From: Escherichia coli
GTDB lineage: Bacteria; Pseudomonadota; Gammaproteobacteria; Enterobacterales; Enterobacteriaceae
Length of the DNA: 64,000 nt
Assembly (NCBI RefSeq): GCF_003790525.1
Contig: NZ_CP033635.1
Direction: 5' to 3' (one strand)
A program made the position numbers and the translations under genes. Of this stretch, positions 176 through 63,036 are shown piece after piece. Each line of letters opens with the position of its first letter. Position 1 is the stretch's first letter. The notes beneath the pieces are model-generated. The model did not search any database, was not told the origin of the DNA, and was given only the letters and a program-made list of their open reading frames with translations.

Positions 176-550
176 TAGCTATGTGGGTGGCTCATCGCTG
201 ACGGCATGTATGCGTAACAGAGCATCTGTATCATCCGTTTGACGTTTTCGTCGGCGATCCTGCCAGCTATTCGGACATCTTGTGAAACCCAAAGGCAGCG
301 GCTGACGAAGCTTATCCGGTATCCTCTCGCAACAAAGGTACATGTACCATCTACTTTTTGGGCGGCCATTGTCGACAGATTCTTAAGTAGAACAGCTAAG
401 TTTAGATTTAGGAAAAAGTTGTTAAAATCAAGCAAATACTTATCATCATCACTTGATTTCGTAAACGCAAAACTACGATACTATTAACAAATTCTTCTAT
501 GCATTCTTACCGAATGTTGGCGGTAGCGTGCTTAATCACTCGGATTTAGT

Positions 551-3500
551 ATGAAAAAAAATTCTTTAAATGTGATTTTGGATACTGTTTTCTCGGCGAA
601 AAGCATCAATGGTGAGAAATCTCATTCTTTTATATCGTATAAATTAGTTAAAGCTGTAGAAAATTTAAGTGGATATGACTTGGATCTTTTCCTCAATCGT
701 GCGATAAACCATCCTAACTTCCCTAGCAATATGGATTTTTCCTTACGAACAGTTTTTACAATTGAACAATCTAACACTATTGAATTTAAAAATTTCATTT
801 CAGAATTGGTGTGGTACAAGCATATTTTCATACGATATAAAAAACACCTTAATGATATATTATCGGCAAAGGCAAGACTTGAGAAGTTAGTTCTTTTCGC
901 AACAGGTAGTGAATGTATAAAATATTTAGATGAAATAGAAAGCTCTTATGGAGTTAGTTTTTGGAGCATTGATGCTCGTCTCTTAATAAATAAAGTTTTG
1001 CTTAACGAAAGCAATGGGTTATATGTTAAATCAATTCTATCTAAAACCCACTATAAACTTACAGAGTTTATGTTACAGCAGCTATTATTTAAGCATCAAG
1101 TACATAACTTTGATGATTTTTCAAAGAACCTTATAAAAATACTAGATGATATGCGCACCACTCAAGATAATGGGTATGCTAGAAATTTAGCTGATGGTAT
1201 TTCATCCTTTTTAATACCTTTAGAGTTTGATAAAAATATAGATCTCAAAAATAGAACCTTAGCACCATTTACCAACCTTCCTTTAATAGATCAATTTATC
1301 ATATTCCAGAGAACTATAAGCGATTTACAACTTCATGGAAATGGTTTAAGAAATAGCGAGTTAAGCTTAATTGCAGAAATTAACAGCTTTATTAAAAATA
1401 ACTATCTCAACAATATTTTAGATGGAAGAGAGCGTAATATAGAGAATATTGATGAACACTATAAAAGTGTTATTCGACGTTATACTATAGGTGATTATAC
1501 TGGGTGTATTTCAGAAATAAATTCAGTTCGAACGCAGAAGACAATTTTGCCATTAATTGAAATATATGCAAAATCCCATGTGTATCTTGATAAGAAAATT
1601 TCAGACTCATGCATATTCAATAAATTAACAAACTGGCTTATAGCAATTATAAAATGCGACAGACGCGCTGGAAAATACATCGATGAATTTGAACTTTTAG
1701 CATCTAAGATATATTTCAATTCAAATTCATCCTCTCTATTCTTCACATTATATAATTTAATAAGTGATAACCATAATAAATTAAACATATCTCGTATAAA
1801 TCTAACCAAAAATGGTTCCTTTGTAACATCCCTTCATTTGAATATAACAATCAAGGAACTATGGACTGAACTTGGAATAAAAGAGAATGAGATACCAAAA
1901 TATCGATTATTTAAATTCAAAGACCTAGCAAATCTATCCTTTGATGAAATCAAAAAACACTACGAAGTATACAATGATAATGTAATAATTCGCTCTGAAT
2001 ATTTAAAAGATTATACTAACTTTTTATTAGAAAATGAAAAGTATGAATTATGCATCCAATTTATAGCTGAAAACTGCATCGGCAACCCCGCAAATTATTA
2101 CTACTTCCCAATCCGAAAAATAATTGATTTTGTAAAAGACAATATTTTTGACTATGCAAGCGTGGCCTTATCTATATTGATAGATATTTTTGTCAAAAGC
2201 ACATCAAACACTTCAAATGAGCTTCTTCTCGAAAGTTATGAGAGTTTAGTAGATATTTCAAATATTAATAGGCCATCTACCCATTATTGCTCTAAGCAAT
2301 TAACTCCATTAGAGCACTATTTCCTTAAGTTTATCTGTATACCTTCCGTGATGGATTCAGACCCTTCATTCACAGGCACGGACGACTTGAAGAAGGAAAG
2401 AATTGCTATTATAGATCTATTATTAAAAGAACACGATGATGCAGATTTATTGAAAGAGAAAGACGAAATTATAGATGAAATATCATTCGAAGAAATAAAA
2501 ACAAAATATGAGACAGGAAAAATATTTGTTGATATAGAAAATTTAAAACGGGCAAAGCTTGAAAGATACAGATATTATTTTGATGCACTTAAGGATTCGC
2601 TTATTCTCGGACTAGAACCACCTGAAGACTTTGCTTTAATTACAGACGATGGGAATATCACAGCCATTCCATCTGGCGATACAAACTCTATAATCCATGA
2701 ACTTCTAAAAGAACTAATCTCCGATTTTGTTAAAAATGAAAATTACGGTCTTGATAAATATTTGAGTGCAGATATACGGCATGGTGTTTTTGAAAATCAA
2801 CTCAGATCAAGTGCTGAAAAATCGCAATTAATAACTGATATGGATGGTACTGGACAGTATTCGAAAAGCAATTTAATTATTGAGACATATCCATTAATTA
2901 ACCCTATTATAAATAACGAAATAGGGACAGCAATAGCTGATTTCTCTTATCACTTTGACATTGAATTGGCTAAAGCCAATTCCTGGTTCAATGTCAAGAC
3001 AATGCTCATAAGTGAATCACAGCAAGGTATGATTGATTTCCTCATTTCTGTTGATATGTTTAATTCATTTAAAGCAGCAGTTTCAAATCAAGCATCTTTT
3101 GAGAAGTTTTTTGACGCTTGTATTAACTTCATGTGGGAAAGAACGTTCAGATGTTTGAATGATATTAAAGAGCGATTGCATTACGAATTTAAGAGGAATA
3201 TTTTAGATTTAATTGCCACTCTTAGGCATCAAATTGATATCTATAGAAGACGTAGTTCCATGAGAGAAATCCAGGAGAAAATTGACCTCTTGGCCGAAAG
3301 CATTAATAAAGAAATTGCAACAGTCTGCGATTGGTTAAATGTACTTGAGTATAACGAGGAGAAAATATATAAAATATCATCCGTGATGCAGGCATGTAGG
3401 AAAACTTTTTTTAATATACACCATTGTTCTGATGATGCTATCGTTTTTGATTCAATGTATCATGATGATGAACCAAAATTATCTTATAAAGAAGCCAAGC

Positions 3501-3826
3501 CTCTAATCACATCAATAATAACAGCGTTAAACAATGCTATGGCCTATGGTAATAAAAAAATCTTTATCAGTATTAAGCCTGAAGAAAAGTCATGGAAAAT
3601 AACCATCAGAAATTTGATAATTGAGACAAAGAACAGAACTACCAACCAAATTTTACAAGAGATTGATGATAAAATAAAACGAGGGGATAATAGTCTAAAT
3701 ATAAAAGAAGGCGGAGCTGGAATATATAAAATATATGATTTATTATGTTCATTACCGCAAAGATTTAATGTGAATCATTGCATCCAAAATAACGAATTCA
3801 TTTTAAATATTGAGATAAAGAAATGA
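551..3826 (+). CDS. Large sensor protein with C-terminal histidine-kinase-like ATPase core (Detocs DtcA-like); N-terminal ~850 aa of unknown, probably helical-repeat, sensing function
   Basis: 1091-aa ORF, strongly AT-rich. C-terminus carries an N-box-like motif (ITALNNAMAYGN, compare EnvZ NAARYGNG) and a G2-like GGAGIY motif; a candidate H-box (ERLHYEFKRNILDL) lies ~100 aa upstream. Stop overlaps next start (ATGA at 3823-3826). Confidence 0.6.
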   Translation: MKKNSLNVILDTVFSAKSINGEKSHSFISYKLVKAVENLSGYDLDLFLNRAINHPNFPSNMDFSLRTVFTIEQSNTIEFKNFISELVWYKHIFIRYKKHLNDILSAKARLEKLVLFATGSECIKYLDEIESSYGVSFWSIDARLLINKVLLNESNGLYVKSILSKTHYKLTEFMLQQLLFKHQVHNFDDFSKNLIKILDDMRTTQDNGYARNLADGISSFLIPLEFDKNIDLKNRTLAPFTNLPLIDQFIIFQRTISDLQLHGNGLRNSELSLIAEINSFIKNNYLNNILDGRERNIENIDEHYKSVIRRYTIGDYTGCISEINSVRTQKTILPLIEIYAKSHVYLDKKISDSCIFNKLTNWLIAIIKCDRRAGKYIDEFELLASKIYFNSNSSSLFFTLYNLISDNHNKLNISRINLTKNGSFVTSLHLNITIKELWTELGIKENEIPKYRLFKFKDLANLSFDEIKKHYEVYNDNVIIRSEYLKDYTNFLLENEKYELCIQFIAENCIGNPANYYYFPIRKIIDFVKDNIFDYASVALSILIDIFVKSTSNTSNELLLESYESLVDISNINRPSTHYCSKQLTPLEHYFLKFICIPSVMDSDPSFTGTDDLKKERIAIIDLLLKEHDDADLLKEKDEIIDEISFEEIKTKYETGKIFVDIENLKRAKLERYRYYFDALKDSLILGLEPPEDFALITDDGNITAIPSGDTNSIIHELLKELISDFVKNENYGLDKYLSADIRHGVFENQLRSSAEKSQLITDMDGTGQYSKSNLIIETYPLINPIINNEIGTAIADFSYHFDIELAKANSWFNVKTMLISESQQGMIDFLISVDMFNSFKAAVSNQASFEKFFDACINFMWERTFRCLNDIKERLHYEFKRNILDLIATLRHQIDIYRRRSSMREIQEKIDLLAESINKEIATVCDWLNVLEYNEEKIYKISSVMQACRKTFFNIHHCSDDAIVFDSMYHDDEPKLSYKEAKPLITSIITALNNAMAYGNKKIFISIKPEEKSWKITIRNLIIETKNRTTNQILQEIDDKIKRGDNSLNIKEGGAGIYKIYDLLCSLPQRFNVNHCIQNNEFILNIEIKK

Positions 3827-4272
3827 AAATTCTTCTTGTTGAGGATATTGAATATAAGCGTGATAAGGTGATCGGTTTACTAGAGTCTATTTCTGCCGAT
3901 GTATCAGTCGATGTAGCTAAATCTTATGTTTCGGCAGTAAATTCCGCAACCAGTAAAACTTATGATCTTATAATATTAGATATGAGCCTTCCCACTTACG
4001 ATAAGGGGCCTAATGAAAATGGAGGTCGCTTCAGAGTGTACGGAGGGAAAGATATTATTCGCAAGTTAATGAGAGGAAAAGAGCATCCAGTAGTTGTGGT
4101 TTTAACACAACATACAACTTTTGGTGAAATTGGTGAGCAAAAAAATACTGACACTCTATCACAAGAGTTGAATGCTTTAATGGGATCAAAATTTATAGGT
4201 ATTGTAAAATATGACTCAACTAAACCTCAATGGAAAGATGAAATAAAAAAAGTCGTACAGGATTTGTTATGA
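3823..4272 (+). CDS. Stand-alone receiver (REC) domain protein (Detocs DtcB-like)
   Basis: 149 aa; KILLVEDIE N-terminal acidic pocket, YDLIILDMSLP with candidate phospho-acceptor Asp53, downstream VVVLT. Start and stop are coupled by ATGA overlaps to both neighbours. Confidence 0.6.
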   Translation: MKILLVEDIEYKRDKVIGLLESISADVSVDVAKSYVSAVNSATSKTYDLIILDMSLPTYDKGPNENGGRFRVYGGKDIIRKLMRGKEHPVVVVLTQHTTFGEIGEQKNTDTLSQELNALMGSKFIGIVKYDSTKPQWKDEIKKVVQDLL

Positions 4273-5432
4273 TTAAAATATTAATAGTTGATGACAATAA
4301 ATCTAGAATTGAAAAGCTAAAATCTAGCTTAACTGAACTCATCACAAAAAACATGATAAGGATTGATGAGAAATATACAAGTGACGCCGCAAAAATCGCG
4401 CTCAAGTTAAATCAATATGATTATTTAATTCTTGATGTCTTTTTACCTAAAAAAGATAACTATAGCCCAGATGAAAGAAATGGATTAGGTCTTTTAAAAC
4501 AAATAAATTCAGATTCTAAATTTTACTCTCCAAAAAAAATAGTTGGCATAACTGCATATCTGAATGATATATCCAGATATGAATCCGAATTCAGAGAATA
4601 TGCTTCAATTATATTCGAGGCTCGACGTAATGATACTGGATGGCTTGAATCACTCAAAAAAATCATTGAAAAGGATGTTGAATCTCAAGTAAGTTATAAT
4701 CTCAATGAAAAAGATAGTGTTTTAATAACAGTACACGGTATAAGAACCTACGCACCTTGGCAAAATACCATAGAAGAAAAAATAACCAATATATCAAATA
4801 AATTTAACTATATAAAATTCAATTATGGTTTTCTAAATATTCTTTGTTTTTTATTCCCTCCGACTAGACATCTATTTGCAAGAAAAATAATCCAAGACAT
4901 ACGAATTACAGTGGAATCAAATAAGAATAAAAGAATTTATATTATTTGTCATAGTTTTGGTACCTACCTTGTATATTGTGCCTTAAGTAAACTGACACAT
5001 ACGGATGCAAAAATTGAATGTTTAATTTTTTCTGGTAGCGTATTAAAACGTACTACCTCATTGAAAACATTAAAGCAACATTGTAATGCAATAATAAATG
5101 ACTGTGCTGTAAGTGATTATATTTTATTACTATGTAAAATGTTAGTCATTGGCTTGGGCGATGCAGGCAGAAAAGGGTTTATTGAGCCAAATGATGGTGT
5201 TTTCATTAACCGCTATTTTAAAGGAGGACATTCAACTTACTTCGAAGATAAAGATTTCATAGAAGTGAACTGGCTTCCTTTAATTTTTGACAATAAAAAT
5301 ATCGCGTCACGAGATGAAAGAAAAAATCATATTTTTTCCGATGTCACCAATGCTTTGCAAAATATAATTGAATATTTAAAAATACCAATATGGTTATTTT
5401 TTTCTTTTTTATTGATAGCACTGGTATTATAA
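4269..5432 (+). CDS. Receiver (REC) domain fused to predicted alpha/beta serine hydrolase (lipase/esterase-like) with C-terminal transmembrane anchor (Detocs DtcC-like effector, non-PNP)
   Basis: 387 aa; N-terminal REC (KILIVDDN, YDYLILDVFLP Asp56). C-terminal part has VLITVHGIRT (oxyanion-hole-like HG), nucleophile elbow ICHSFG (Ser229, nt 4953-4955), later GGHSTYF (candidate catalytic His) and a hydrophobic tail IPIWLFFSFLLIALVL. Confidence 0.6.
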   Translation: MIKILIVDDNKSRIEKLKSSLTELITKNMIRIDEKYTSDAAKIALKLNQYDYLILDVFLPKKDNYSPDERNGLGLLKQINSDSKFYSPKKIVGITAYLNDISRYESEFREYASIIFEARRNDTGWLESLKKIIEKDVESQVSYNLNEKDSVLITVHGIRTYAPWQNTIEEKITNISNKFNYIKFNYGFLNILCFLFPPTRHLFARKIIQDIRITVESNKNKRIYIICHSFGTYLVYCALSKLTHTDAKIECLIFSGSVLKRTTSLKTLKQHCNAIINDCAVSDYILLLCKMLVIGLGDAGRKGFIEPNDGVFINRYFKGGHSTYFEDKDFIEVNWLPLIFDNKNIASRDERKNHIFSDVTNALQNIIEYLKIPIWLFFSFLLIALVL

Positions 5433-5458
5433 TATCACTGCACATTAAAAATCATATT

Positions 5459-5484
5459 GGAGCTTCCCTCATAAAGCTCCAATA
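5459..5484 (+). terminator. Candidate stem-loop downstream of the three-gene operon
   Basis: GGAGCTT-ccctcat-AAGCTCC inverted repeat 27 nt after the stop at 5432; no clear T-run. Confidence 0.3.
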
Positions 5485-5911
5485 TAAAACACCATCATTT
5501 CAATAGTACCTGCAGCTAATTAAAACTAGTCAACCGAAAAAATTAATCACTTTAAACTTTAGTATGCACTTATACTTTCTTAATAATAGAAAAACACTTA
5601 CAAATAAATTAATCATGTCAATCTCCGTAACTACAACCTCGGAAAGTATGTAAACAGGAATCATTACTGAAAAAAACACGATTTCAGCAGAATTCTAGAA
5701 ATATCCTGTGCTGCTGCCGATACCAACTTTCGTATATACTACCCTTCACGTTCCTTCTCGTTTTTATAAAACTATTCATTTATAACTATCAATAGGCATC
5801 ATAACCAATGTAAGTGTAAGTACTGGTGAACGAGTGTCAATGGAGTTAAAAGTATCACTTCATCCTGCTAAATATAAGTTATCCTACGTTTTAATATACT
5901 AGAACTCAAAA

Positions 5912-6877
5912 TTAGAATGGTTTGTTAATATTAATAGATTTACCATTGATATCTTTTGACACCTTAAAAAAATCTATACCTTTTATCCACTGACATAACT
6001 GTTGTAGTGTTTCCATTGCCTGTTCTAACTCATTTTTTTCAATTCTAACGCCCCCATGATGGCTACAGGAATTTAATAATTCCTGAGCTAGAGTGATGTC
6101 ATTCTTCAGCTTATTAGGCAGACCGAGAAAATTAATCACCCTCGACAAACTCCCAAGCATTAACTTTTGATAGTCTTCTTCAAATTCCTTTTCAGCCCTA
6201 ATATTTACTAACATCAAAACATACTCAAGATAACGCCGTGCTGTATTTCCCTTTTCTTGTAACGCATCTCTATCATACTCTTTAATATCACTCAATTCCT
6301 GTAGTAGAAAATCAAACTTAGCTATTGCCAAGTTAAGATTGATGTTATGCATTAGCAATTCGGATGCATGATTGCTAACAGGTACACGATTTGGTGGACG
6401 TATCATTATAGCCGTCGTGTAACAATTTATATTTGGTATCTGTATAAATTCCTCACCGGAACGCGTAACACGTTGAACTTCTACCATATAGTGGCCAAAT
6501 TTATCAATCTCATATGACCGACAACGAGCAGAATATAATTTATTTAGCTTTTTCCTGTCTTGATAATATGATTTTATTAATACAAAAAATGCTCTTTCGT
6601 GCTCAATAATTAAAATAGTCTCTATTGAAGCATGGTACAACCATCCGTTATTCCATGTTAATTCAAGCTGTCTATTTCCATCTTTAAAATCAATTTTAGT
6701 TATACGATCCCAACTTCCTCTATCAATAAAATCGACAATATTGCGCCCAAATCCTTGATAGTTATTTTTAACAATGTGCAATAGTACTGCCTTTATTTTA
6801 TCCCAATCATGAATTTCTTTTTCATATTCACCATTTAATATATTCGTTAAATCACTGTGAAAATTTTCATATGTCAT
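5912..6877 (-). CDS. Hypothetical protein (island cargo, no recognisable motifs)
   Basis: 321-aa ORF with ATG at 6877, AT-rich like the neighbouring operon, directly downstream of the integrase on the same strand. Confidence 0.55.
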   Translation of the reverse strand: MTYENFHSDLTNILNGEYEKEIHDWDKIKAVLLHIVKNNYQGFGRNIVDFIDRGSWDRITKIDFKDGNRQLELTWNNGWLYHASIETILIIEHERAFFVLIKSYYQDRKKLNKLYSARCRSYEIDKFGHYMVEVQRVTRSGEEFIQIPNINCYTTAIMIRPPNRVPVSNHASELLMHNINLNLAIAKFDFLLQELSDIKEYDRDALQEKGNTARRYLEYVLMLVNIRAEKEFEEDYQKLMLGSLSRVINFLGLPNKLKNDITLAQELLNSCSHHGGVRIEKNELEQAMETLQQLCQWIKGIDFFKVSKDINGKSININKPF

Positions 6878-6978
6878 AAGTATCTCTTTTTAGATAAAAT
6901 TGGATTTCGACAAGTAGACGTTGATAACAACAAGACTGGTTAGATAATTTAATCATTGATGCAACGTTTAGCGTTGAA

Positions 6979-8163
6979 TCAATTGACATCATTACCAATT
7001 CTTCCAATGCAATCAGCATACCACTGCATCATCTCCCTCCGCCCTTCCAGATACAAAGCATGGTTGTACGTCCCACGAATCGCATTCTTATCGACATGCG
7101 CAAGCTGGGTTTCAATCCATGCCGTATTGAACCCTTCCTCGTGCAAAATCGTACTCATCGTGTGACGGAAACCATGCCCCGTTACCTTCCCCGTATACCC
7201 AATCCGTTTGAATACCTGATTCATACTCGCTTCACTCATCGTCTTGCGGGGATCATTTCGCCCTGGGAATACCAGTGGATATTGCCCAGATATCACCTTG
7301 AGTTGTTGTACGATTTCCAGCGCTTGGGTAGATAGGGGGACAAGGTGAGGCCGTTTCATCTTCATACGCTCTGCAGGTATTTCCCACACTGCTTTTTCAA
7401 GATCAAACTCACTCCAGAAAGCACCTCGTAGCTCGCCAGTACGAACTCCTGTAAGGATCAGCAGACGAGCGGCAAGAACAACTAACGGGCTTCCTGTGTA
7501 GCCTGCGAGAGCTTTAAAGAAGTCTGGTAACTCCTCAACAGTAAGGAAGGGATAATGCTTCGATTCATGCCCTGACATTGCGCTGGTTAGATCCGCTGCA
7601 GGATTGTATTCCGCACGACCGGTAACGATGGCGTAACGAAAGACTTCACTGCAACGCTGGCGAACCTTCTTGGCCTTCTCTGTCGCGCCACGGCTTTCCA
7701 TTCGACGTAGCACATTCAGCAGAACCAAAGGCTTGATGTCATTCACCGGCAGTTGGCCAATATAAGGGAAAATATCTTTATTGAAGGCTTCGATAATGTC
7801 GGAGGCATAACCTTCTGACCACCGGCTCACCTTCGTTCCGTGCCATTCAAGTGCCACAGCCTGAAACGTATTATTGAGCTGCACATCGCGAACCAACTTT
7901 TCTTCTTTCTTGGCAAACGATGGGTCGATACCTTCGGCCAGCTTTTTCTTGGCTTCATCACGCAGTGCCCTCGCTTGTGCAAGGGACACTGCCGGATAGA
8001 CACCAAAAGCCATACGTTTCTCTTTTCCATTGAAGCGATATTTCATCCGCCAGTATCGAGAACCAGAAGGAACAACTTCAAGATACAAGCCTGCACCATC
8101 TGCTAGCTTGTAGGCTTTCTCTCTGGGTTTAGCAGCATCTACCTGTCGAGCATTAAGCTTCAT
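6979..8163 (-). CDS. Site-specific tyrosine integrase, P4-like family
   Basis: N-terminus MKLNARQVDAAKPREKAYKLADGAGLYLEVVPSGSRYWRMKYRFNGKEKRMAFGVYP is typical of P4-type integrases; C-terminus has GHGFRHT and LAHVDKN...RGTYNH catalytic-region motifs. Start placed at ATG 8163 (AGGGAG 9 nt upstream); lies 164 bp from the tRNA 3' end. Confidence 0.9.
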   Translation of the reverse strand: MKLNARQVDAAKPREKAYKLADGAGLYLEVVPSGSRYWRMKYRFNGKEKRMAFGVYPAVSLAQARALRDEAKKKLAEGIDPSFAKKEEKLVRDVQLNNTFQAVALEWHGTKVSRWSEGYASDIIEAFNKDIFPYIGQLPVNDIKPLVLLNVLRRMESRGATEKAKKVRQRCSEVFRYAIVTGRAEYNPAADLTSAMSGHESKHYPFLTVEELPDFFKALAGYTGSPLVVLAARLLILTGVRTGELRGAFWSEFDLEKAVWEIPAERMKMKRPHLVPLSTQALEIVQQLKVISGQYPLVFPGRNDPRKTMSEASMNQVFKRIGYTGKVTGHGFRHTMSTILHEEGFNTAWIETQLAHVDKNAIRGTYNHALYLEGRREMMQWYADCIGRIGNDVN

Positions 8164-8326
8164 TGGGGGCATCTCCCTGGACCGAACACAGAATGCCCCC
8201 ACTTATGCCCCCAACTGCGACTTGATTTCGGTTGAGTCCAGTTGATAACAGGAGATAAGATACGGGCCAGAAACCGCAGTATACGGGCTTTTAGTTGATT
8301 TCGGTAGACTTGGGAAGAGTTTGAAA

Positions 8327-8402
8327 TGGTGCCGATAATAGGAGTCGAACCTACGACCTTCGCATTACGAATGCGCTGCTCTACCAACTGAGCTATATCG
8401 GC
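8327..8402 (-). tRNA. thrW: tRNA-Thr (anticodon CGU)
   Basis: 76-nt minus-strand sequence GCCGATATAGCTCAGTTGGTAGAGCAGCGCATTCGTAATGCGAAGGTCGTAGGTTCGACTCCTATTATCGGCACCA folds as a cloverleaf with anticodon loop TTCGTAA and CCA end. Confidence 0.9.
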
Positions 8403-8517
8403 CCTGAAAGGACATGATTCACGAACGTGAATCACGGTGGACAAGGTTAAAACTAACCGGGCGATGCGTCAATGGCCTTGTGAATCAAATGGCTACTTTT
8501 GCATCACCCGGTTTTAT

Positions 8518-16295: not shown

Positions 16296-16910
16296 TTATC
16301 CTTCGATAAAAGCCATCCCTGTGAACGTTCGTCGCGGGTTGCCACGTTCAATCTGGTGATGGAACATTCGCCGCTGCGATTTCAGCGCCGCGCTATTTTC
16401 CTGTTGCTGTTGTTCCAGCTTCCAGGCAATCAGTAATCGCGCCAGCCGTTTGTTAGCATGCTGACTGCGCTCTGACTGAACCTTCACGCTAATACCGGAT
16501 GCCAGATGCGTGGCGCGTACCGCCGAGTCGGTTTTATTGACATGTTGACCGCCCGGCCCCGACGAACGCAGCGTCTCATAACGGATCGCGTCGGATTGTT
16601 CCTGCTCATCAGCGGTAAAACGCCCAATGCCCAGAAACCAGTTTTTGCGCCCATGATGAGGCCGATACGGACTCGGACAAATCCACTGGATAGTGCCACA
16701 CCAGCTTTCGCTTAGAGCCCATGCGTTATCGCCATCCAGAGAAATCAGCGCCGAACGCATTGTGTCAGGATAGCGCCCCGCTTCTGTTTCCAGCACCGTT
16801 ATCGCGACGTCTTGTCGGGTAGCTTCTTTAATCAACCTGTCCAGCGCCTTTTTCACTGCCAGGCAACATTCTTCCGGCCCCTGAGCTGAGGAGAGTTGTA
16901 GCAAGATCAT
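16296..16910 (-). CDS. prfH: Peptide chain release factor homolog PrfH (full length)
   Basis: Translation from [21 protein letters not shown]... contains the release-factor GGQ motif ([16 protein letters not shown]); ATG overlaps the upstream rtcB-like stop (ATGA). Confidence 0.85.
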
Positions 16911-18058
16911 CCTTTTTTCCCTCCACTGTTTTTGAGCGTTAGCACCGGACGCAGTCGCGCGACAGGAATAATTAACCCAGCCTGCACCAGACATTGCACC
17001 ACGCTTTCAGCCGATTTATAAGCTTGTGGCGCTTCTTCAAAGATGAGTTGTTTATCGCGACAAATTACCCGGCTGCCAAGTTCAGTACGTGAGAGCTGCG
17101 TCGCTGTGTATTTCGCTGCCAGACGCCCTTTACACTCGGTGCGCCCCCATTTACGCCCAGCCCCATGCGCCAGCGAATGCAATGTTTCCTCACTCCTGAC
17201 GGGCTGAACCAGCCAGGAGTAATCACCGCGTGAACCGGGAATAATCACCAGACCGTTGTCATCCGGTGTGGCACCTTTACGATGCAACCAGCCCTGTTGA
17301 TCACCGATTCGACACGCGCTAACAAAGTTATGCGCCACATCCAGAACCGAATTACCGTTGGCCTTAATCTGTTGCATTATGCGCAAAGCGATCAGCTGGC
17401 GATTAATACGCGCAAACGCCAGCGCATCATCATGTTCCACAATATAACTTAGCGCGTCGTCACTGCCTTCAGGCAAACCATGATGCGAAAACGAGGCAAT
17501 ATGCCGCTGTAAAATAGACTGGCCCAAACCCCGCGAGCCGCTATGAACCAGCAGTTGCAGATGCTGCGCATCCAGACCTGTCAGTGCAAACAGTTCAGCG
17601 TCGATAATTTCATCAACTTGTTGCAGTTCTGCGAAGTGGTTTCCGCCACCGATGGAACCCAGCGAGCTGCGCCACGGATGCTGTGCTAACGCTGACGGCA
17701 GGTTTTCCTCCAGCCAGCTTTCTTCAGCAACGTCATCCAGCGCAGATAATCGCTTTTCAAACTTATCGGCGTTGTATTTGCGCGCGAAAATATCTGTTTG
17801 CCATAGCGCCATACCGCAGCCGATATCATTGCCGACCAGTGCCGGGTAAAAACGGCCTACGGAGAAGAACGCTGCGCCAATCGGATAGCCGCGTCCGGGG
17901 TGTAAATCTGGCATCCCTACTACGCGTTGCATGTCGGGTAAATTTGCCGTGGTGTGTAATTGTTGGATCGCTGAACTCTCGATCCACAGGTCATCAGATG
18001 CGATGGTAAGTACCGCATCAGATAAGGGACGAATATATTTGCCCATGTACCATTCCAT
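16907..18058 (-). CDS. RtcB-family RNA ligase homolog (ykfJ/rtcB2-type), full length
   Basis: 383-aa ORF translationally coupled to prfH; conserved RtcB-like His/Cys/Gly-rich segments (e.g. [19 protein letters not shown]). Start may be at the first or second ATG. Confidence 0.8.
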
Positions 18059-18698: not shown

Positions 18699-19098
18699 TC
18701 AAAAACGCATGCGAAACGCTTCTGCCATTTTCCCAATTTTATGCATTTGGTTGTTATCTCGAGCCAGTTTATGAGGTTCAGGTTTCAGAATGGCAATGAG
18801 CAACCATGCTTGCTCATCAAACGCACCCTGACAATATACCAAATGCGCTTCGTCATTCGTTCTGCTGAATTGGCGCAACTGTGGCGGAAATGGATTATTC
18901 ACATTTGCCAGATGAATATGAGCAACTCGCTCAAATTTGATTAATGGCCAGGTAAACGAGTCGTCGTAGGAGTGCATCGCGACCAAATATATCTGGCAAA
19001 ACACCGTCACGCTTATAGGAAATAAAATCCGCCGTTAACGCATCAAGTTCCTCTGCTGTAAGTTGCAGGCGAATAAGTTTTGTTTTGAATACCCGCAT
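18699..19098 (-). pseudogene. yafO: yafO toxin gene interrupted by a single-base frameshift
   Basis: ATG at 19098, coupled to the yafN stop, encodes MRVFKTKLIRLQLTAEELDALTADFISYKRDGVLPDIFGRDAL, then stops after 13 more codons. The rest of YafO (YDDSFTWPLIKFERVAH...FRMRF) continues in the +1 frame; the frames meet at a CTCC run near 18969-18972. Confidence 0.6.
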
Positions 19099-19100
19099 CC

Positions 19101-19394
19101 TTATTCCTTAAAGTCATTGAAATCATCATCCGTCATATCATTAAGATATTGTTCAGCGCGGCGTGTAATTTCCTCTAATCTTGCGGCACTCGGACGGAAG
19201 CGCGCCTTAACCAGTTTTTTCTCCTCTTGTTCAGCAAGCATGTCCATTAACGCTTCAAATGCGCTGGCACTTAAGAGATATCCTGCGGGGCGATTATTAG
19301 AAAGAACCGCAACCGGTTGATCAATAAAGTATTTAGCTGGGTTTTTACGTAACTCAGTGATATTGACCGATTTTTCAGCGAGAATTCGATGCAT
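19101..19394 (-). CDS. yafN: Antitoxin YafN
   Basis: 97-aa translation MHRILAEKSVNITELRKNPAKYFIDQPVAVLSNNRPAGYLLSASAFEAL... matches YafN. Confidence 0.85.
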   Translation of the reverse strand: MHRILAEKSVNITELRKNPAKYFIDQPVAVLSNNRPAGYLLSASAFEALMDMLAEQEEKKLVKARFRPSAARLEEITRRAEQYLNDMTDDDFNDFKE

Positions 19395-61390: not shown

Positions 61391-61567
61391 ACTCAATAAT
61401 GGCTGGTCATGCATTGATGTTGCAGTGTATCCCGGCCCGTACCTGAACAAACTTAATAAACCATTATTATAAAATTAATAAATATATTTCAGTTAATTAT
61501 GTAAAAACATCCGTTTATTAAATTACTCATGGATTGTCGCTGTTGCTCATTTGAGCTACAATTCAAG

Positions 61568-61583
61568 CTGAATAAATATACAG
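61568..61583. promoter_or_regulatory. Candidate LexA box upstream of dinJ
   Basis: CTGAATAAATATACAG fits CTG-N10-CAG about 17 nt upstream of the dinJ ATG. Confidence 0.5.
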
Positions 61584-61599
61584 CACAGGAGATATCCCA

Positions 61600-61860
61600 A
61601 TGGCTGCTAACGCGTTTGTTCGCGCCCGAATCGATGAAGATCTGAAGAATCAGGCGGCGGACGTACTGGCCGGGATGGGGCTGACCATCTCTGACCTGGT
61701 TCGCATAACCCTCACAAAGGTCGCGCGTGAAAAGGCATTGCCGTTTGATTTACGCGAGCCTAATCAATTAACTATTCAATCAATCAAAAACAGCGAAGCT
61801 GGCGTTGGTATTCATAAGGCCAAAGACGCCGATGATTTATTTGATAAATTAGGAATTTAA
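61600..61860 (+). CDS. dinJ: Antitoxin DinJ
   Basis: 86-aa translation MAANAFVRARIDEDLKNQAADVLAGMGLTISDLVRITLTKVAREKALPFDL... matches DinJ. Confidence 0.9.
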   Translation: MAANAFVRARIDEDLKNQAADVLAGMGLTISDLVRITLTKVAREKALPFDLREPNQLTIQSIKNSEAGVGIHKAKDADDLFDKLGI

Positions 61861-61862
61861 AT

Positions 61863-62140
61863 ATGATTCAAAGGGATATTGAATACTCGGGACAATTTTC
61901 AAAGGATGTAAAACTTGCACAAAAGCGTCATAAGGATATGAATAAATTGAAATATCTTATGACGCTCTTATCAATAATACTTTACTGCTTCCAGCTGTTT
62001 ATAAAGACCACCCGCTGCAAGGTTCATGGAAAGGTTATCGCGATGCTCATGTCGAACCGGACTGGATCCTGATTTACAAACTTACCGATAAACTTTTACG
62101 ATTTGAGAGAACTGGAACTCACGCGGCGCTATTTGGGTAA
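61863..62140 (+). pseudogene. yafQ: yafQ toxin gene interrupted by a single-base frameshift
   Basis: N-terminus MIQRDIEYSGQFSKDVKLAQKRHKDMNKLKYLMTLL is YafQ. After CTCTTATCAATAAT the frame shifts; the remainder (INNTLLLPAVYKDHPLQGSWKGYRDAHVEPDWILIYKL...AALFG) continues in another frame to TAA at 62138-62140. Span is 278 nt, not a multiple of 3. Confidence 0.6.
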
Positions 62141-62295
62141 AGCCCGCTGCCGATGAAATTTGTAAACCCTGCGCCGACAGGCTTGCGTAAAACTCTTTTG
62201 GTGATAATGTGAGCCTTCCAAATCCAGACTATTCCGATTTGGGATCCATTTTGCCGTCCTGGCGTGTGTAACCGTTTTATCAAGGAATAAGCAGT

Positions 62296-63036
62296 ATGCG
62301 TAAAATCGCATTAATTCTTGCGATGTTGTTGATCCCGTGCGTTTCGTTTGCCGGTTTGCTGGGCAGCAGTAGCTCGACCACGCCAGTGAGCAAAGAGTAT
62401 AAGCAGCAGTTGATGGGATCCCCTGTCTACATCCAGATCTTCAAGGAAGAACGTACGCTCGATCTCTACGTCAAAATGGGCGAGCAATATCAACTGCTCG
62501 ACAGCTATAAAATCTGTAAATATTCCGGCGGCTTAGGGCCAAAACAGCGTCAGGGCGATTTCAAAAGCCCGGAAGGGTTTTATAGCGTCCAGCGTAATCA
62601 GTTAAAACCAGACAGCCGTTACTACAAAGCGATTAATATTGGATTCCCAAACGCCTATGACCGTGCGCATGGTTATGAAGGGAAATACCTGATGATTCAC
62701 GGCGATTGTGTTTCCATCGGCTGCTACGCGATGACCAATCAGGGTATTGATGAGATCTTCCAGTTCGTTACTGGTGCGCTGGTGTTTGGTCAGCCGAGCG
62801 TGCAAGTGAGTATTTACCCGTTCCGTATGACCGACGCCAATATGAAGCGCCATAAATATTCCAACTTTAAGGACTTCTGGGAGCAACTGAAGCCAGGCTA
62901 CGACTACTTTGAGCAAACCCGTAAGCCACCGACCGTTTCTGTGGTCAATGGCCGTTACGTGGTCAGCAAGCCGTTAAGCCACGAAGTTGTGCAGCCACAA
63001 CTGGCATCAAACTACACGCTCCCCGAGGCAAAATAA
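62296..63036 (+). CDS. yafK: L,D-transpeptidase-fold protein YafK
   Basis: Signal peptide [19 protein letters not shown] and YkuD-type catalytic motif ([14 protein letters not shown]). Confidence 0.9.

Follow-up and report, generated by a model that had tools for sequence, protein, structure and literature searches.

The frameshifted yafQ gene that adjoins an intact dinJ gene in this Escherichia coli chromosome raises the question of whether the toxin has genuinely been lost and, if so, how a toxin gene came to decay beside a preserved antitoxin gene. In the window, which denotes the whole 64,000-nt stretch of DNA that was analysed, the genes are arranged in the order yafL, dinJ, yafQ, dpaA and yafJ, as they are in both K-12 and SMS-3-5, with only 2 nt separating dinJ from yafQ (Table 1). 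The DinJ protein (WP_000729708.1) is annotated in RefSeq in the strains SMS-3-5, ST648, MS6198 and XDL. The region 5' of dinJ corresponds to the K-12 sequence save for one T/C difference at 61595/6; this T/C change, 5 nt 5' of the dinJ ATG (61595), is also carried by the yafQ-deletion haplotype. The LexA-type box in this region agrees with the binding of LexA at the dinJ promoter, as the literature is summarised in PMC4996492. Within DinJ itself, three of the four amino acid differences among six dinJ alleles fall at residues 69-71 (window positions 61804-61812), which read IDV in K-12, VGI in the window, VGV in AR_0077 and VDV in O157.

Table 1. Positions of the features of the dinJ-yafQ and yafN-yafO loci within the window
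Feature	Position	Strand	Description	Basis
Promoter-like site of the dinJ-yafQ operon (putative)	61534..61562	+	TTGTCG-17-TACAAT	Consensus scan
LexA-box-like palindrome	61568..61583	+	CTGAATAAATATACAG (CTG-N10-CAG)	Read from sequence
dinJ antitoxin gene	61600..61860	+	Intact, 86 aa	ORF; TIGR02384, 83.7 bits; WP_000729708.1
yafQ pseudogene	61863..62140	+	278 nt, ATG at 61863, TAA at 62138-62140; 1-nt deletion	Window read; RefSeq 'frameshifted' in SMS-3-5, ST648, MS6198 and XDL
Residual frame-0 ORF of yafQ	61863..62072	+	36 YafQ residues + 33 out-of-frame residues = 69 aa	Translation; stop 62070-62072
Deleted T, codon 35 of yafQ	61965..61967	+	CTT CTT in K-12, CTC TT here	Alignments to K-12 and intact relatives
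yafO pseudogene	18699..19098	-	400 nt; +1 C at 18969/18970	Alignment; RefSeq 'frameshifted' in SMS-3-5
yafN antitoxin gene	19101..19394	-	Intact	SMS-3-5 annotation mapped on the window; alignment

Alignment against the dinJ-yafQ region of K-12 MG1655 (approximately 98% nucleotide identity) contains a single gap, with GCTTCTTATC in K-12 corresponding to GCTCTTATC in the window, and the relatives with an intact gene, AR_0077 and E7-1N7, keep the extra T at this site. The tract affected is a TT dinucleotide or, depending on how it is read, a two-unit CTT repeat, and does not constitute a homopolymer run. The first thirty-six residues of YafQ are retained because CTC TTA still encodes Leu-Leu, with codons 1-36 matching K-12 YafQ except for Y12F before the two diverge. 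The frame-0 translation begins MIQRDIEYSGQFSKDVKLAQKRHKDMNKLKYLMTLL and proceeds through unrelated residues to the stop at 62070-62072, and the rest of YafQ (INNTLLLPAVYKDH...ALFG and the stop codon) lies in another frame, where the reading of the 3' part (...INNTLLLPAVYKDHPLQGSWKGYRDAHVEPDWILIYKLTDKLLRFERTGTHAALFG and the stop codon) ends at 62140. When the frame is conceptually repaired, the protein differs from K-12 YafQ by only Y12F and P42L. The first-pass annotation had described a yafQ span of 278 nt with 36 YafQ codons, its remainder in another frame to 62140, beside an intact dinJ, all of which is borne out here. It had, however, supposed that the missing base was an A at TTATC, and the comparison with the yafQ of relatives which it had proposed (K-12 and the intact AR_0077 and E7-1N7) places the loss at 61965-61967 as a single T in codon 35 (CTTCTT to CTCTT).

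The coding capacity of the two genes was compared against protein family models. DinJ is encoded by an uninterrupted ORF and scores 83.7 bits against the RelB/DinJ model TIGR02384 (cut-off 45.65) over residues 1-84 of 86, and can be assigned to this family. The frame-0 product of yafQ reaches 27 bits against TIGR00053, the NCBIfam model of the RelE/YoeB-fold toxin YafQ, well below the cut-off of 87.25, with only profile positions 1-35 matched. The conceptually repaired 92-aa YafQ scores 115.3 bits, above the same cut-off, and its sequence is nearly the same as that of YafQ in the solved structures 4ML2, 4ML0 and 4Q2U. The cleavage of mRNA by YafQ and its toxicity require H50, H63, D67, H87 and F91 (PMC4652777), and the codons for all five residues lie 3' of the frameshift. 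A search for ATG, GTG or TTG in the C-terminal frame, from its upstream stop (61943) as far as 62140, found none, and internal restart of translation was rejected as this frame has no canonical start codon. The gene occupies the position of its ortholog, directly 3' of dinJ and between yafL and dpaA, with 98% DNA identity to K-12 yafQ. This synteny and identity, together with the failure of its product to match the family, therefore identify a yafQ pseudogene and not a functional member of the YafQ family.

A second toxin gene in the window is also frameshifted, as the first-pass annotation had noted. In yafO, which is located beside the intact antitoxin gene yafN, the K-12 sequence GCACTCTAC is replaced by GCACTCCTAC at 18969/70, and an exact 61-mer across the inserted C occurs in 24/5,426 complete genomes. 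The yafQ-deletion carriers M160133, EC488, ST648 and MS6198 have a yafO of intact length, so that the yafQ and yafO lesions are separate and nested, and the inserted C in yafO is a real event that is younger than the yafQ deletion. Simultaneous frameshifting of the two genes was rejected on the same grounds. Among the approximately 70 CDSs annotated in SMS-3-5 for the 64-kb stretch, yafQ and yafO are the only pseudogenes (probability approximately 4e-4, calculated post hoc).

The yafQ deletion is a genuine, inherited lesion and did not arise from sequencing error, since it is found in 157 genomes, no indel separates the window from SMS-3-5, and RefSeq likewise records the gene as 'frameshifted'. 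The whole 64 kb aligns with SMS-3-5 (NC_010498) in segments of 49,842, 8,901 and 5,441 nt that together contain six mismatches and no gaps, and many complete genomes match the 641-bp dinJ-yafQ locus at 100% identity. An exact 61-mer centred on the deletion is present in 157/5,426 complete E. coli genomes, whose sources span several continents and comprise wastewater and rivers as well as humans, dogs, poultry, cattle and a pangolin, and which were sequenced in many laboratories, while the intact 62-nt version, with the T present in the same local haplotype, occurs in eighteen other genomes and is annotated as an intact 92-aa YafQ in AR_0077 and E7-1N7. SMS-3-5 is a capillary-sequenced genome from 2008. 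That the true yafQ is an intact 279-nt gene, with both its missing T and the extra C in yafO being errors of sequencing or assembly, is accordingly so improbable that it hardly needs to be entertained. Indel errors do occur in complete assemblies, and in the ST648 record both dinB and yafP bear the label 'frameshifted', whereas the two genes are intact in the near-identical MS6198. However, the identical yafQ deletion recurs in all of the above carriers, SMS-3-5 included, its tract is just 2 nt long, and the allele alignment places four derived SNPs on the one haplotype that carries it. It is neither a private lesion nor accompanied by other indels relative to close relatives, as would be expected of an artefact. 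The first-pass annotation had attributed the two single-base indels in short repeat tracts to a possible systematic sequencing error. The indels themselves proved real, occurring in 157 (yafQ) and 24 (yafO) genomes, but the tracts are of only 1-2 nt, which weakens the notion of repeat tracts, and the 289 homopolymer runs of at least 5 nt in the window include none with an indel relative to SMS-3-5, and the idea of systematic error is refuted. For the strain ST648 record (NZ_CP008697.1, locus positions 6179-8444), the 'frameshifted' dinB and yafP are probably assembly indel errors. Recoding, by which a programmed -1 ribosomal frameshift or transcriptional slippage would yield full-length YafQ at a low level from a regulated and not a dead toxin gene, has a similarly negligible probability. 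A -1 slip after CTC TTA would restore the exact wild-type peptide ...MTLLINN..., but a search for X XXY YYZ heptamers across 61863-62072 found none at or near 61965. The sole example, AAAGGGA at 61870, is 95 nt away from the lesion and does not have the required register. Furthermore, there is no long run of A or T at the lesion on which transcription could slip, and the intact sister alleles show yafQ to have been a plain ORF ancestrally. Because the catalytic residues are all encoded downstream, in a frame that has no canonical start codon and is reached by no slippery site, an active YafQ is predicted not to be made from the 278-nt allele, and from its sequence the allele can be regarded as that of a dead toxin.

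The distribution of the module was determined using a 641-nt query against a collection of 5,426 complete E. coli genomes. The query is covered to at least 80% in 3,325 genomes, while the module is absent from about 2,060 (~38%), in which the last 45 nt of the flank alone match. Besides the window allele (157 genomes), a 2-nt deletion in codons 7-8 is found in 296 genomes (O157:H7; e.g. ATCC 35150) and a 9-nt deletion combined with K48* (LR-06 type) in 220 genomes, and yafQ is interrupted by ISVsa5 in strain Z1323CEC0017 and by IS1A in strain KFu022, with dinJ intact in each of these four other cases. RefSeq labels the other dead alleles 'frameshifted', 'internal stop' or 'incomplete'. The three commonest lesions are carried by at least 673/3,325 module-bearing genomes (20%), counts which the repeated sampling of clones, O157:H7 among them, has inflated, and yafQ appears intact in most of the module-bearing genomes (roughly 80%). 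Counted as distinct lesions, and not from a phylogeny, there have been at least five independent inactivations of yafQ within E. coli. The yafQ of strain SJ3, which is 6 nt shorter and annotated as encoding an intact 95-aa protein starting inside dinJ, was left out of the lesion count. By comparison, dinJ shows at least 80% query coverage in 3,324/3,328 dinJ-bearing genomes (~99.9%) and is exactly 261 nt long in 59/59 of the sampled rows with full coverage. In the one dinJ-deleted genome that was inspected, LF3-1, yafQ is already dead and of the LR-06 type. The loss of dinJ in LF3-1 occurred via an IS1-associated rearrangement. Among six alleles, the ratio of nonsynonymous to synonymous substitutions is 6:1 in yafQ and 4:6 in dinJ (Fisher p = 0.13), a pattern which leans towards relaxed constraint on yafQ, although it is not significant and is suggestive only. 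Searches of the literature found no explicit description of the window yafQ deletion or of the O157:H7 yafQ frameshift.

The deletion lies within a block of shared sequence. Between the window and the ST648 and MS6198 genomes there are zero differences over 61392-62648 (1,257 nt, including dinJ and the deleted yafQ), whereas the flanks of this block differ by ~2%, with seventeen SNPs upstream in yafL and twenty-six downstream in dpaA and yafJ. At the SNP density of the flanks, the chance of a SNP-free block of 1,257 nt is approximately 7e-12. AR_0077, in which yafQ is intact, has most of the flank SNPs of the ST648 type but shows seven differences within the central block. Because the block is free of SNPs, its flanks differ and AR_0077 combines ST648-like flanks with another centre, this indicates that the null allele resides on a short recombinant block common to lineages that differ elsewhere, with homologous recombination having had breakpoints near the module. 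Mosaic sequence of this kind is widespread in E. coli, and the block alone does not show selection.

The locus is, with high probability, the chromosomal dinJ-yafQ type II toxin-antitoxin (TA) operon of an SMS-3-5-like strain which has undergone ordinary toxin-first decay following the ancestral loss of a T. The T would have been deleted from codon 35 of yafQ in an ancestor, after which a product of 36 native and 33 unrelated residues, ending at 62072, would be made, and the ribosome-dependent mRNA interferase would be absent, leaving the toxin dead. With the promoter, the LexA box and dinJ unchanged, DinJ would probably still be produced as an orphan antitoxin and repressor. Continued expression of DinJ is probable. 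In O157:H7 Sakai, induction of the dinJ-yafQ transcript accompanies entry to stationary phase (PMC2241611), and the complete genomes of O157:H7, the same serotype as Sakai, carry the 2-nt-deletion allele of yafQ. Lesions would be expected to gather first in the toxin gene because loss of the antitoxin would be tolerated only once the toxin is inactive, and the lineage would later have gained the separate +C frameshift in yafO. The idea that chromosomal TA modules decay through mutants with an inactive toxin is an established one, with ccdO157 as an example (PMC7167474; PMC2654758). In terms of the order of loss, the single dinJ deletion inspected, that of LF3-1, sits on an already dead yafQ. 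The intact dinJ of the present lineage carries no statistical weight alone, because the allele is so close to its intact relatives (about 6 substitutions in 1.26 kb).

The same lesions could also have been favoured by selection. Adaptive loss, in which active YafQ would be costly, null alleles would be favoured and would spread partly by homologous recombination, and DinJ would be kept for a toxin-independent role (autorepression, a lowering of RpoS through repression of cspE, or the neutralisation of incoming YafQ-family toxins), is an unlikely account of the locus, though one to which several observations lend themselves. These include the five or more independent lesions and the frequency of the three commonest, the near-universal full length of dinJ, the deletion being on an identical block within divergent flanks in SMS-3-5-like and ST648-like strains, the coincidence (estimated post hoc, as above) that the only two pseudogenes in the window are both toxin genes, the contrast in substitutions between yafQ and dinJ, and the toxin-independent regulatory action of DinJ on cspE and RpoS that has been published (PMC4996492). 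However, an asymmetry between toxin and antitoxin is equally expected from neutral toxin-first decay, as antitoxin loss is counter-selected for as long as the toxin is alive; the substitution contrast does not reach significance; mosaic blocks of ~1.3 kb are routine in E. coli; and the large majority of module-bearing genomes retain an apparently intact yafQ. A more specific form, in which there was recurrent selection for the loss of yafQ (at least five null alleles, some fixed in O157:H7, ST648 and SMS-3-5), DinJ was kept for a toxin-independent task (cspE/RpoS regulation or protection from incoming YafQ-family toxins) and the null haplotype was moved between phylogroup F lineages as a ~1.3 kb block, is somewhat less likely again. 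In a plasmid collection, the matches of at least 95% identity are F-prime plasmids or very large records with a chromosomal segment and not natural plasmid TA modules, and the other seventy plasmid records fall below 90% identity (sixty-eight at 60-80% and two at 80-90%), with genera including Klebsiella, Enterobacter and Sphingobium. An anti-addiction role for orphan DinJ is neither supported nor excluded by this search, and regulation of cspE/RpoS is not established as the reason for DinJ retention. The recurrent yafQ lesions and the preserved dinJ accord with the suggestion in the first-pass annotation of selection against active toxins, but selection is not demonstrated, because neutral toxin-first decay gives the same pattern; neutral drift and selection for toxin loss are indistinguishable in these data. 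Adaptive loss, if true, would change the evolutionary cause and not the identity of the feature.

The feature itself is already known, being an annotated, lineage-fixed pseudogene of a well-studied toxin, and does not represent a new kind of system. Toxin-first decay of the dinJ-yafQ operon nevertheless has practical consequences. As the deletion is genuine, it is not to be 'corrected' during the polishing of assemblies. TA surveys that rely on ORFs or on lenient HMM searches can mis-score the locus, the 69-aa remnant matching the YafQ model at E = 5e-6, and lenient pipelines may count the dead allele as a toxin. In PMC10790755, YafQ is scored as highly prevalent in phylogroup F. Carriers among the SMS-3-5-like and ST648-like strains are predicted from their gene sequences to have no YafQ activity, and the SMS-3-5 subclade would also be without YafO. 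Work on persistence, stress and phage defence that assumes the K-12 complement of TA systems would be affected by the absence of YafQ and YafO in such strains. With ~20% of modules carrying a dead yafQ, dinJ rarely lost and the module absent from ~38% of genomes, the locus also offers a natural example of toxin-first decay.

Several neighbouring features of the window were observed. A complete Flag-2 (lateral flagella) cluster extends from lafU to flhA (~20572-59856), between dinB and rayT/yafL. Elsewhere this cluster is represented by lafU/lfhA pseudogene remnants in K-12 and by a lafU-flhA remnant in ST648 and MS6198, both of which are without the Flag-2 cluster that the window keeps. An integrase-bounded islet (~550-8402) is situated by a tRNA-Thr gene (~8327-8402) and has its integrase at ~6979-8163. 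Its other products include a hypothetical protein of 1,091 aa together with a response regulator and an alpha/beta hydrolase, and the edge of the window carries an IS3 element. Downstream of yafP, intact genes for an rtcB-family RNA ligase and prfH (release factor H) are located at ~16296-18046 on the minus strand, where K-12 has the pseudogene ykfJ.

The closest known counterpart of the locus is the K-12 dinJ-yafQ operon (b0226-b0225), which encodes a ribosome-dependent mRNA interferase and shares with the window locus its position between yafL and dpaA, its promoter, its LexA box and the 2-nt spacing of the two genes. In K-12, growth in the cold is impaired when dinJ is deleted, a defect that depends on YafQ (PMC4996492). 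The K-12 operon is distinguished from the window locus in that the one-T deletion in the latter removes residues 37-92 from the YafQ product, and in DinJ residues 69-71, which are VGI in the window and IDV in K-12. Similarly, in the other yafQ pseudogenes of E. coli (O157:H7, LR-06, IS1A and ISVsa5) the same gene is dead at the same locus beside a dinJ encoding the full 86 aa, but the window lesion is at a different position and in a different lineage, and is independent of these. The ccdO157 system (Mine et al. 2009, Genetics), as it is related in PMC7167474 and PMC2654758, provides a further parallel, in which a type II module of the chromosome likewise decays within a species, by a proposed inactive-toxin route, although on the same accounts CcdB is a gyrase poison whereas YafQ is a RelE-type RNase. 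[quoted passage not shown] The dinJ gene of the window resembles these in remaining intact with no functional toxin as its partner, and differs from them in that the remnant of its toxin gene, still almost of full length, continues to adjoin it.
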